This document shows positions 59,834 to 61,324 of a stretch of 64,000 bases of DNA, one piece after another. The translations under genes were made by a program, and so were the position numbers. Source of the stretch: Parachlamydiaceae bacterium (lineage in GTDB: Bacteria > Chlamydiota > Chlamydiia > Chlamydiales > Parachlamydiaceae). The DNA is taken from contig JBEPVN010000002.1 in assembly GCA_041691015.1 (NCBI GenBank), positions 1 to 64,000 of the forward strand, given 5' to 3'. Position 1 is the first letter of the stretch. Each line of letters starts with the position of its first letter. Under the pieces are notes generated by a model. That model was not told where the DNA came from and made no database searches. It saw nothing but the letters and a program-made list of their open reading frames with translations.

Positions 59834-60265
59834 ATGACTGTAGAACAAACCCTATCCATCATCAAACCAGACGCTGTCGGCGGAAACAAAATCGGAAATA
59901 TCATTTCGCGCTTTGAAGATCAAGGTTTAAGAATTGTTGCTGCTAAAATGCAACACCTTACAAAAGAAAAAGCAGAAGGTTTTTATTCAGTTCACAAAGA
60001 ACGCCCTTTCTTTAACGATCTTGTTTCATTCATGACGACAGGACCTGTTTTGATCATGGTTTTAGAAGGCCAAAACGCCATTGCGAAAAACCGCGATATC
60101 ATGGGCGCAACAGATCCTAAAAAAGCTACTGCCGGAACAATTAGAGCAGACATTGCAAAAAGCATCGATGAAAATGCAGTTCATGGATCTGATGCTCCGG
60201 AAACTGCGCGCGAAGAAATCAAATTTTTCTTCAATTCAGAAGAAGTTTGCCCGCGCACAAGATAA
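59834..60265 (+). CDS. ndk: Nucleoside diphosphate kinase (cytoplasmic copy)
   Basis: [10 protein letters not shown]...NAVHGSD active-site His motif; 143 aa. Confidence 0.9.
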
Positions 60266-60274
60266 TTGTTTTAA

Positions 60275-60838
60275 ATGATTCTTTTAATCGATAATTACGA
60301 TTCATTTACTTACAATATCGCACAGTGCTTCCAAATGATTGGAAGTACTGTGCATGTAGTTTGCAATGATGTTTCCCATATCGATTTTATACCCACCCAC
60401 TTAGTCATTGGGCCAGGTCCTGGGACTCCTTCCTCTGCCGGTATTTCGAAAGAGCTCATCCATACCTATCTGAACAAAATTCCCATTCTTGGCATTTGTC
60501 TTGGTCATCAATGCATTGCCGAATTTTTTGGAGGTATTGTTTTGAGGGCAAAAAAACCGATGCATGGGAAGTTAAGCAAAATCTATCACGACGAAAAGGG
60601 TCTCTTTAAAGGAATGCCAAAACCTTTTGTTGCAACACGCTATCACTCACTTATTGTTGAGAAAAAAAGTTTTCCAAAGGAACTCATTATATCTGCAGAA
60701 ACATCAGATGGCGAAATTATGGGCTTAAGGCATAAAGAATACGCGCTTGAATCCGTACAGTTTCATCCGGAATCTGTGACTACTGAAAAAGGATTGACAC
60801 TATTCCAAAATTTTATAAACTCAAAAAAAATAACTTAA
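60275..60838 (+). CDS. pabA: Class I glutamine amidotransferase, anthranilate/aminodeoxychorismate synthase component II type (TrpG/PabA)
   Basis: MILLIDNYDSFTYNI..., catalytic GICLGHQ Cys and HPES His motifs; 187 aa. Confidence 0.8.
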   Translation: MILLIDNYDSFTYNIAQCFQMIGSTVHVVCNDVSHIDFIPTHLVIGPGPGTPSSAGISKELIHTYLNKIPILGICLGHQCIAEFFGGIVLRAKKPMHGKLSKIYHDEKGLFKGMPKPFVATRYHSLIVEKKSFPKELIISAETSDGEIMGLRHKEYALESVQFHPESVTTEKGLTLFQNFINSKKIT

Positions 60839-60856
60839 ATTAAAGGAATATTTTTT

Positions 60857-61324
60857 ATGTTAAAAAAAACACTTTTTTGTTTAACGACGCTTCTACACTT
60901 TTCTTTGCATGCTGAAAAAACACTTTCCATAATAAAACCGGATGCTGTTTCAAATCATCATATAGGAGAGATTATCTCGCGATTTGAAAAAAATAATTTA
61001 AAAATTTCGGGCTTAAAAATGGTGAAGCTTAATAGGCAAGAAGCCGGAAAATTTTATGCTGAGCATAAAGACCGTCCTTTTTATGGGGAACTTGTCGAAT
61101 TCATGAGCTCATCTCCTGTTGTCATTATGGTGTTAGATGGTGACAATGCAGTTGCGAAAAATAGAGAGCTCATGGGAGCTACCGACCCGAAAAAAGCAGA
61201 TGCCGGCACAATCAGAAAAGACTTTGCGGAATCGATGGGCAAAAATGCTGTCCATGGCTCAGATAGTGTGGAGAGTGCCAAGACAGAGATCGAGTTCTTC
61301 TTCAAACCCCACGACCTATTTTAA
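60857..61324 (+). CDS. ndk: Nucleoside diphosphate kinase paralog with a predicted N-terminal signal peptide (candidate secreted or periplasmic Ndk)
   Basis: [19 protein letters not shown] precedes the conserved [11 protein letters not shown] start; NAVHGSD active site retained; roughly 60% identical by eye to 59834..60265. Confidence 0.8.

Follow-up and report, generated by a model that had tools for sequence, protein, structure and literature searches.

In the 64-kb stretch of DNA analysed here (the window), two genes for nucleoside diphosphate kinase lie on either side of a gene for a glutamine amidotransferase, and the second kinase begins with an extension that the first does not have. 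The question raised by this locus is whether the extension is a genuine export signal and, if so, where the kinase that carries it would work. Our answer is that the genes represent a conserved cluster of the environmental chlamydiae (Parachlamydiaceae, Waddliaceae and Criblamydiaceae), in which the second kinase, Ndk2, is very probably a catalytically intact enzyme exported by the Sec pathway.

The three genes are read from the forward strand. The leaderless kinase gene ndk1 (59834..60265, 143 aa; ORF list, Pfam and NCBIfam) is followed after 9 bp by pabA/trpG (60275..60838, 187 aa), encoding a class-I glutamine amidotransferase, component II of aminodeoxychorismate or anthranilate synthase, and after a further 18 bp by ndk2 (60857..61324, 155 aa), the kinase with the predicted N-terminal export signal. 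The ORFs, their coordinates and the interposed TrpG/PabA-type amidotransferase are thus as described in the first-pass annotation (ORF list, Pfam, TIGR00566). Direct reading of the same strand reveals Shine-Dalgarno-like elements for both kinase genes, AAAGGA (59822..59827), 6 nt 5' of the ndk1 start, and AAAGGAA (60842..60848), upstream of the ndk2 ATG at 60857. Two genes on the reverse strand served as synteny anchors. Divergent and upstream is pheT (57654..59681), encoding the phenylalanyl-tRNA synthetase beta subunit, with the Pfam domains B3_4, B5, tRNA_synthFbeta and FDX-ACB (read on the identical gene in locus L001); convergent and downstream is a gene for an lptB-like ABC ATPase (61349..62074; Pfam ABC_tran). 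The cluster ndk1-pabA-ndk2 probably forms an operon. When region 59600..61500 was scanned, 6 promoter-like and 2 terminator-like sites were found, compared with 4.9±2.2 and 1.4±1.2 in shuffled sequence; since these counts are no higher than those of shuffled sequence, the scan speaks neither for nor against an operon.

Both kinases cover the Pfam NDK family (PF00334) end to end, Ndk1 with residues 4-138 (E = 7.6e-58, 194.6 bits) and Ndk2 with residues 20-153 (E = 1e-58, 197.3 bits; cut-off 27 bits), and both exceed the cut-off of 155 bits of the NCBIfam equivalog NF001908 (210 and 207 bits, respectively). Compared with each other by BLASTP, they are 58% identical over 138 residues without a gap (E = 1e-60), and 591 bp separate their genes, in agreement with the approximately 60% and 590 bp estimated beforehand. 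The expectation that the copies would differ at the N-terminus only did not hold, as they differ throughout, at 42% of the aligned residues. Alignment to the solved structures 3pj9 and 6aes showed the catalytic His of the N-x-x-H-G-S-D motif and the nucleotide-binding residues (the Lys of KPD, the Tyr of FY, the Arg of RPF, the Thr of GATDP and the Arg of GTIR) in both copies. Sequence identity between the Ndk2 core and solved Ndks exceeds 60%, and the motifs NAVHGSD, KPD, RPF, GATDP and GTIR are all present in the core and matched to these structures. Judged from its motifs, Ndk2 is best read as a catalytically intact kinase.

The amidotransferase is equally typical of its family (Pfam GATase, E = 5e-56; TIGR00566 trpG_papA, 206 bits for a cut-off of 121). 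Its best solved relatives are the glutaminase 6qur and the aminodeoxychorismate synthase component 2 structures 8rp0 and 8rp1, with residues 1-182 aligned, and the motifs GICLGHQ and FHPES, aligned to 6qur and 8rp0, are kept, so that the Cys-His-Glu triad is in place. The protein would supply the glutaminase subunit for the synthesis of PABA and folate, and possibly of anthranilate. A chorismate-binding domain of the PabB/TrpE type was found in none of the 20 largest ORFs of the window. The absence of an adjacent partner synthase had been considered unusual; this was not borne out, pabA between two ndk genes being a conserved arrangement. In E. coli, pabA and pabB are likewise unlinked. The folate gene folK (HPPK) lies about 4.4 kb downstream of pabA in the same conserved block. 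A literature search on pabA and pabB in Waddlia returned nothing, and the study of Adams et al. 2014 concerns only Chlamydia species devoid of pabABC (PMC4161248).

We then looked at the N-terminus of Ndk2. Residues 1-19 (codons 60857..60913, forward strand) lie outside the Ndk fold, as solved structures, from their own residues 2-4, begin to align at residue 19 or 20 of Ndk2. Two lysines (K3 and K4) form a putative n-region, followed by 15 uncharged residues (5-19), and L17-H18-A19 would occupy positions −3 to −1 of a cleavage site predicted between A19 and E20. In our heuristic scoring, this N-terminus has the layout of a Sec/signal peptidase I signal peptide. The hydrophobic region is nevertheless weak for its family: its best 10-residue stretch has a Kyte-Doolittle mean of 1.87, lowered by the T, T, H and S residues within it, whereas the median of the family is 2.55. 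Our first threshold (mean of at least 1.9) left out Ndk2 itself; it was lowered to 1.8 and calibrated on the window's proteins. Applied as a control to 53 ORFs of the window, the heuristic picked the SurA-like, BamD, Mip and LptA-like proteins, found the lipobox of LptE, and picked no ribosomal protein or cytoplasmic enzyme save one long-start artefact. The Leu at −3 is a tolerated residue at that position, not an optimal one. The signal-peptide call is thus supported by our heuristic together with the published result for an orthologue: for the signal peptide of Waddlia Ndk2, MLKKLIFTAAILFAPLFAQ, SignalP 6.0 gives a probability of 0.999 (PMC13318545). The extension belongs to the second copy only, as the first-pass annotation had proposed; ndk1 could not be extended at all, since an in-frame TAA lies 9 codons upstream (59807..59809) and the codons that follow it offer no start.

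Such an extension could also be produced by a wrongly chosen start codon. An in-frame TTG at codon 17 of ndk2 (60905) could yield a leaderless product of 139 aa. If it were the true start, Ndk2 would be a cytoplasmic enzyme of canonical Ndk length and the apparent signal peptide an untranslated leader. Public gene models do disagree on the start (141, 156 and 238 aa for the Protochlamydia Ndk; 144 aa for homologue P0014 and 156 aa for its cluster-mate), and an ORF extension may look signal-like, as does that of the GAPDH ORF at 1274..2380. The ATG at 60857 is the earliest possible start, the in-frame pabA stop lying 6 codons upstream; it is preceded by the Shine-Dalgarno-like element, whereas no purine-rich element precedes the TTG. 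Loss of the extension in orthologues had been named beforehand as the observation that would point to an artefact, and among the 120 closest homologues, 100 keep an extension, each 12 residues or longer. The extensions diverge in sequence while sharing one design (K/R residues, a hydrophobic core and a small-x-small site). The strict heuristic was passed by 86, and in 37 homologues the predicted cleavage falls 2 residues before the TLSIIKPD core, exactly as in the window. In two lineages a lipobox stands in place of the signal peptide, LISC/LIGC in homologues P0034, P0036, P0074 and P0117 (with the same syntenic cluster in L086) and LLASC in L032, and linkers of 75-100 residues have been added in the ndk2 genes of Protochlamydia UWE25 (L085) and of L036. 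Non-coding DNA would not hold an open frame and a signal design in so many divergent homologues, nor would it exchange a signal for lipoboxes. In L082 and L086, moreover, the upstream ATG of ndk2 and the stop codon of pabA overlap, an arrangement suggestive of translational coupling at that ATG.

The contig search with Ndk2 provided a negative control, as it returned mostly ordinary proteobacterial ndk genes and five chlamydial loci. A signal-like start was present in 10 of 98 ndk ORFs (87 loci), every one of them chlamydial, and in none of the approximately 75 non-chlamydial ndk genes examined. The filter missed the chlamydial copies of L032 and L036, in which a signal-like start is present on direct reading. 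One candidate for a signal-bearing Ndk outside the chlamydiae (L087/L088, with another gene context) proved to be chlamydial, its SerRS being 75% identical to that of Protochlamydia. Altogether, the start-codon artefact is strongly disfavoured by the comparative data, and we regard it as highly improbable. On the evidence of its conservation, the Ndk2 extension is a real, selected feature, kept across the Ndk2 clade including its lipoprotein-type variants.

If the extension is translated, it could still act as an uncleaved signal anchor that tethers Ndk2 to the periplasmic face of the inner membrane, beside the nucleotide transporters. The Leu at −3 and the weakly hydrophobic core could slow cleavage, and the lipobox variants indicate that some lineages tolerate and use membrane tethering of the enzyme. 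The first-pass annotation had taken the extension for a signal peptide and not for a membrane anchor, and this held: the uncharged stretch, 15 residues long here, falls short of what a membrane anchor needs, and both it and the family median of 17 stay below the length of a typical transmembrane helix. In addition, a small −1 residue and an allowed −3 residue are kept across the family, and the many members that lack a linker before the first beta-strand would have the fold pressed against the membrane. We therefore consider retention as an anchor improbable.

The surroundings of the cluster are conserved as well. The block pheT | ndk1-pabA-ndk2 | lptB...kdsA-folK is also found in Protochlamydia amoebophila UWE25, in a Waddlia genome and in several metagenomic chlamydiae; the order ndk1-pabA-ndk2 was read in L018 (Waddlia MAG), L036, L082, L085 (UWE25) and L086, pheT holds the same position in L018, L032, L036, L082 and L085, and the lptB-like gene in L002, L018, L032, L082, L085 and L086. 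In UWE25 (BX908798.2, 482-503 kb; UniProt 'Ndk 1', Q6MEA9, and 'Ndk 2') the block is identical to that of the window, reading pheT | ndk - GATase - ndk | lptB - lptA-like - x - kdsA - HPPK. In the UWE25 exported copy (238 aa), unlike that of the window, signal and core are separated by about 85 residues of acidic, Q-rich linker, and the protein also appears in databases as forms of 141 and 156 aa without the signal. The window ndk1 product is 74% identical to the UWE25 copy and 86% to that of L082, and the Ndk2 core about 66% to the Waddlia-MAG copy and 68% to the Protochlamydia copy. In a neighbour-joining distance tree without bootstrap, the window Ndk2 shares a clade with seven signal-bearing copies (from the Waddlia MAG, Protochlamydia and others), apart from the ndk1 clade, in which the window ndk1 clusters with the first of the ndk copies in Protochlamydia and its relatives; the lipobox copy of L032 is the sole signal-bearing copy that groups with ndk1.

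Publications of 2020 and 2025/26 already describe the cluster and the Ndk2 signal peptide in Waddlia chondrophila, and Ghazi-Soltani et al. 2026 described the operon in Parachlamydiaceae, Waddliaceae and Criblamydiaceae (PMC13318545). Of the earlier proposal of a dedicated exported Ndk paralogue, what stands is a signal-bearing copy beside a leaderless one, conserved in the clade; the novelty does not. Gene order is the same in W. chondrophila, ndk1 (wcw_1543)-pabA-ndk2 (wcw_1545) (PMC13318545, PMC7143554), and in the Waddlia MAG pheT and lptB flank the cluster as they do here. Waddlia and the window share an ndk1 of 143 aa, an Ndk2 signal of about 19 residues starting with MLKK and the HGSD active site, with paralogue identities of 54% and 58%, respectively. 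The window comes from a different, uncultured organism, and its Ndk2 has a less hydrophobic h-region than that of Waddlia.

Where would Ndk2 act once outside the cytoplasm? [quoted passage not shown] In their study, WcNdk2 produced in C. trachomatis or in transfected HEK293T/HeLa cells was found in the nucleus, the perinuclear region and the Golgi; deletion of the signal peptide abolished this localisation, which is thus signal-dependent, a signal peptide-mCherry fusion went to the Golgi and perinuclear region, and AZT sensitivity was seen only in species with ndk2 (PMC13318545). From the deletion data the authors concluded that the secreted protein retains its signal peptide and that this peptide acts in host trafficking (PMC13318545), a reading that fits poorly with simple cleavage by signal peptidase I. 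All these localisation data come, however, from heterologous over-expression, and any hydrophobic bacterial signal peptide drives entry into the ER/Golgi in transfected eukaryotic cells. The authors did not see the localisations in real infection, and no expression was detected in their Yersinia type III secretion assay (PMC13318545). Kebbi-Beghdadi et al. 2020 recovered Waddlia ndk2, listed as having a signal peptide, in the host-cytosol fraction together with HtrA, CPAF, Skp and Mip, and classical periplasmic proteins were thus among its companions there (PMC7143554). Finally, the N-terminus of the family behaves as a bacterial export signal, with small-x-small before the core, two lipobox lineages and variable linkers. 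This pattern speaks for a role of the peptide in bacterial export and against one in host trafficking, and we consider host targeting through a retained peptide unlikely.

The same lipobox and linker variants would favour an envelope enzyme over a host-trafficking role of the peptide. We tentatively suggest that Ndk2 may be primarily an enzyme that resides in the periplasm or envelope, in soluble form in most lineages and with a lipid anchor in some, and that conditions the outer nucleotide pool, for example by re-phosphorylating ADP from the ATP/ADP antiporter or by interconverting host NTPs to suit the transporters. An extracytoplasmic Ndk would be biochemically sensible only in energy parasites, because host NTPs are present in their periplasm. 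Chlamydiae without ndk2 still import nucleotides, a point against a periplasmic role. The envelope-enzyme reading is not considered in the published work: the word 'periplasm' is absent from the text of PMC13318545. Literature searches on periplasmic nucleoside diphosphate kinase and on Protochlamydia Ndk with periplasm returned nothing.

For this organism, we infer export, cleavage and an extracytoplasmic job of Ndk2. On this reading, ndk1 would be the ancestral copy, encoding an ordinary cytoplasmic enzyme, and ndk2 an old paralogue that gained a Sec-type signal peptide. Ndk2 would be translated from the ATG at 60857, targeted to SecYEG and most likely cut by signal peptidase I after Ala19, which would set a mature, catalytically intact Ndk free on the outer side of the inner membrane. 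Genes for SecY and Lnt are present within the window. The enzyme probably acts first in the periplasm or the inclusion lumen, where it would re-equilibrate NTP/NDP pools for the nucleotide transporters; we prefer this role because of the energy-parasite lifestyle, in which the periplasm receives host NTPs and the transporters release ADP. As has been reported for the Waddlia protein, a fraction of Ndk2 may in addition arrive in the inclusion lumen or the host.

When bacterial Ndks occur outside the cell, they normally have no leader, and their export route is unexplained. Duplication of the Ndk core followed by rerouting of one copy through an N-terminal extension, as in the window, is also known for human NME3 and NME4 and for plant organellar NDPKs; their segments are eukaryotic mitochondrial or organellar targeting or anchoring sequences, not bacterial Sec signals, and have an independent origin. 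In the alignment of Ndk2 to human NME3 (1zs6), NME3 enters at residue 22. The secreted Ndks of Mycobacterium tuberculosis, Pseudomonas aeruginosa and Porphyromonas gingivalis belong to the same enzyme family as Ndk2; they occur beyond the bacterial cytoplasm and are implicated in host nucleotide and purinergic signalling (PMC5121656). They have no leader and exit by an undefined or non-classical route, whereas Ndk2 has a predicted Sec-type signal and a dedicated second gene; of the pair, only ndk1 would fit the leaderless type.

The value of the window is mainly confirmatory, as it adds one further Ndk2 orthologue, and it favours the upstream start codon over the shorter gene models that public databases list. 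A whole clade of chlamydiae in which a dedicated Ndk carries a Sec signal offers a clean natural example of a compartment-specific Ndk, and it bears on the handling of host nucleotides by energy-parasitic bacteria and on the proposed ndk2-linked sensitivity to AZT.

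The three genes lie on the forward strand in the order ndk1 (59834..60265; 143 aa, nucleoside diphosphate kinase), pabA/trpG (60275..60838; 187 aa, glutamine amidotransferase) and ndk2 (60857..61324; 155 aa, nucleoside diphosphate kinase with an N-terminal extension), separated by gaps of 9 bp (ndk1-pabA) and 18 bp (pabA-ndk2); the three same-strand ORFs placed at 59834..61324 by the first-pass annotation coincided exactly with the ORF listing. Both Ndk proteins matched the Pfam NDK domain end to end and surpassed the cut-off of the NCBIfam equivalog NF001908. The two copies had been expected to differ at the N-terminus only; their cores share 58% identity over 138 residues aligned without a gap, so that they differ throughout. 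The ndk1-pabA-ndk2 cluster with a signal-bearing Ndk2 is already known. Ghazi-Soltani, Kebbi-Beghdadi, Adams and Greub (Curr Res Microb Sci 2026, PMC13318545; preprint bioRxiv 10.1101/2025.10.15.682642) described the ndk2 paralogue in Parachlamydiaceae, Waddliaceae and Criblamydiaceae, forming with ndk1 a probable operon usually with pabA in between. In Waddlia chondrophila, WcNdk1 (143 aa) shares 54% identity with WcNdk2, and the WcNdk2 signal peptide, MLKKLIFTAAILFAPLFAQ, has 18-19 residues (SignalP 6.0 probability 0.999; PMC13318545). Before that, the same group had already scored wcw_1545, the Waddlia ndk2, as signal-peptide-positive and placed it in the host-cytosol fraction alongside HtrA, CPAF, Skp and Mip (PMC7143554).

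Looking at the window Ndk2, solved Ndk structures aligned with it only from residue 19/20, meaning that residues 1-19 are an addition to the fold. This extension contains a pair of lysines and an uncharged stretch of 15 residues, with L-H-A ahead of E20. Its Kyte-Doolittle 10-residue mean (1.87, compare with a family median of 2.55) puts it at the weak end of the family, and it fell below our first, stricter signal-peptide threshold. The second most credible alternative to a cleaved signal, an uncleaved signal anchor, is disfavoured by the same 15-residue stretch, which is too short to span the membrane as a helix. As for the start, no earlier codon than ATG 60857 could open this ORF, and AAAGGAA lies ahead of it; codon 17, a TTG in frame (60905), may give a minor leaderless product. 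In ndk1, a stop codon in frame 9 codons upstream makes any extension impossible.

The signal-peptide call was made with a heuristic, which we calibrated on the 53 window ORFs of at least 150 aa. It called the SurA-like, BamD, Mip and LptA-like proteins and detected the LptE lipobox; none of the ribosomal proteins and cytoplasmic enzymes among these ORFs was flagged, except one GAPDH ORF (1274..2380, - strand). The first possible start of that ORF is a TTG, the mechanical start lying 34 codons before the Pfam domain, which begins at residue 35 with an internal Met (MINVAI…); the 34-residue extension is strongly hydrophobic and signal-peptide-like. This "signal peptide" is almost certainly an ORF-calling artefact and was kept as a cautionary control: given such a false positive, what counts is whether orthologues conserve the feature. 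A Mip-type FKBP peptidyl-prolyl isomerase (41296..42114, + strand) served as the positive control for export within the window; its signal peptide, MLKKTILGTLAGMTSILAFGSLSA, begins with MLKKT, as Ndk2 does.

Among the 120 closest Ndk2 homologues, 100 had an N-terminal extension of 12 residues or more ahead of the TLSIIKPD core and 86 passed the strict heuristic. The extensions are divergent in sequence and share one design, Met followed by Lys/Arg, then a hydrophobic core and lastly a small-x-small site, with the predicted cleavage two residues ahead of the core in 37 homologues, as in the window Ndk2. An automated screen of 98 ndk ORFs from 87 fetched loci gave 10 with a signal-like start, all of them chlamydial; two chlamydial copies missed by the filter (loci L032 and L036) have such a start on direct reading, and the roughly 75 ndk genes of proteobacterial, campylobacterial or other origin offered none. 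The third and least credible alternative, a start-codon artefact that would be betrayed by orthologues lacking the extension, was thus rejected. In the closest relative (L082) and in L086, the upstream ndk2 ATG overlaps the stop codon of pabA. Public gene models of the exported Protochlamydia Ndk disagree in length (141, 156 or 238-247 aa, with a SwissProt entry lacking the signal), indicating that several miss it. Taken together with the published work (PMC13318545, PMC7143554), these comparisons support the initial reading of a signal-peptide-bearing Ndk paralogue, the window N-terminus itself being predicted as a signal peptide by the heuristic.

At least two chlamydial lineages replace the classical signal with a lipobox: LISC/LIGC followed by LTGD (homologues P0034, P0036, P0074 and P0117, P0036 being within the same syntenic cluster, L086 8001..8516) and LLASC followed by QREES (L032, about 5860..6410). 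These variants, which the Waddlia paper (PMC13318545) does not mention, predict a lipid-anchored Ndk. Other orthologues have low-complexity, acidic or Q/N-rich linkers of 75-100 residues between signal and core (Protochlamydia amoebophila UWE25, L085 10001..10717; L036, about 7072..7770; proteins P0060 and P0066).

In a neighbor-joining (NJ) tree the signal-bearing copies formed one clade apart from the ndk1 clade, except for the L032 lipobox copy, which grouped with ndk1; the window genes are thus orthologues of Ndk1 and Ndk2, the UniProt names of the Protochlamydia pair. Among named relatives, proteins of "Parachlamydiaceae bacterium" MAGs come closest (78% and 72% identity). The cluster is flanked by divergent pheT and convergent lptB, past which come an LptA-like gene, another gene, kdsA and, just beyond the window edge, HPPK (folK). 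The same block occurs in P. amoebophila UWE25 (BX908798.2, 482-503 kb), a Waddlia MAG, two "Chlamydiae" MAGs and two JGI metagenome contigs; the L002 and L032 clusters are without pabA. On L087, an ENA metagenome scaffold that is chlamydial (SerRS 75% identical to Protochlamydia), ndk1 and ndk2 form a direct tandem without pabA (7503..8525) in other genomic surroundings, adjoining neither pheT nor lptB, and this ndk1 ends in a Cys-rich C-terminal tail, some 16 residues long (…NNSCSKPSCCMH).

By sequence, the amidotransferase is an ordinary PabA/TrpG: it surpassed the TIGR00566 (trpG_papA) cut-off, aligned over its full length with the solved structures of aminodeoxychorismate synthase component 2 and of related glutaminases, and retains the GICLGHQ and FHPES motifs. 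The 20 largest window ORFs include no chorismate-binding protein. The view that a pabA/trpG without an adjacent synthase is unusual is not supported: the gene keeps its place between the two ndk copies from family to family, E. coli too has its pabA and pabB unlinked, and there is a folate gene close by. Codons 16-27 of pabA contain a 15-bp inverted repeat (60320..60353, + strand; 14 Watson-Crick pairs, one G-U, 4-nt loop). The RNA of 60300..60375 folds at -30.3 kcal/mol (z = -6.3 against shuffles, none of which folded as well). In L082 the repeat measures 12 bp and shows one compensatory change, G-C to A-U; in the more distant orthologues of L085, L018 (the Waddlia MAG), L036 and L086 all that is left is a 5-bp TTCCAA/TTGGA core, which the FQMxG codons dictate. 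The hairpin may act in processing or attenuation in this lineage, or it may be due to chance.

The remaining window is ordinary chlamydial chromosome (a ribosomal-protein operon with SecY and RpoA, Lnt, DnaE, SNF2 helicase, Mip, BamD). Two adjacent ORFs of about 400-440 aa (53994..55316 and 55397..56608, both - strand) had no significant Pfam match and weak, sub-threshold F-box-like N-termini (E = 0.0013 and 0.069); as eukaryotic-type F-box proteins are expanded in amoeba-associated chlamydiae, their products may be host-directed effectors. A 339-aa ORF without Pfam match (56672..57691, - strand) overlaps the pheT start by 38 nt as listed; its true start is probably an internal Met giving MRFLKISTLFALCLLLNSC, a lipoprotein-type signal, and the Protochlamydia gene at the equivalent position has a faint MORN_2 match. 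Other large ORFs gave a sub-threshold HC2 histone-like match (15809..16942, - strand; 23.6 bits, cut-off 40), no match (37909..39774, + strand; 621 aa) and a weak, sub-threshold C-terminal HTH (46998..48623, - strand; 541 aa).

The most credible alternative to bacterial export is the published suggestion that the peptide stays on the protein and directs it to the host ER/Golgi or nucleus; in heterologous systems, WcNdk2 needed its signal to reach the host nucleus and Golgi (PMC13318545). However, transfected cells would show the same result with any hydrophobic bacterial leader, and the interchange of classical and lipoprotein signals, together with the free linker length, suits bacterial export better; this is the pattern expected of N-termini selected for export function and not for sequence. 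To the published picture we add support for the upstream start, the lipoprotein and long-linker variants, the confinement of signal-bearing Ndk to chlamydiae among the sampled genomes, and a periplasm-first reading absent from the published discussion. Ndk2 is most likely exported by Sec and, most probably, cleaved after Ala19, leaving an intact kinase outside the inner membrane. Since chlamydiae take up host nucleotides through the inner membrane and give off ADP, an Ndk located in the periplasm or inclusion lumen could re-equilibrate the NTP/NDP pools there, and later release of Ndk2 to the host, as in the Waddlia report, may follow.
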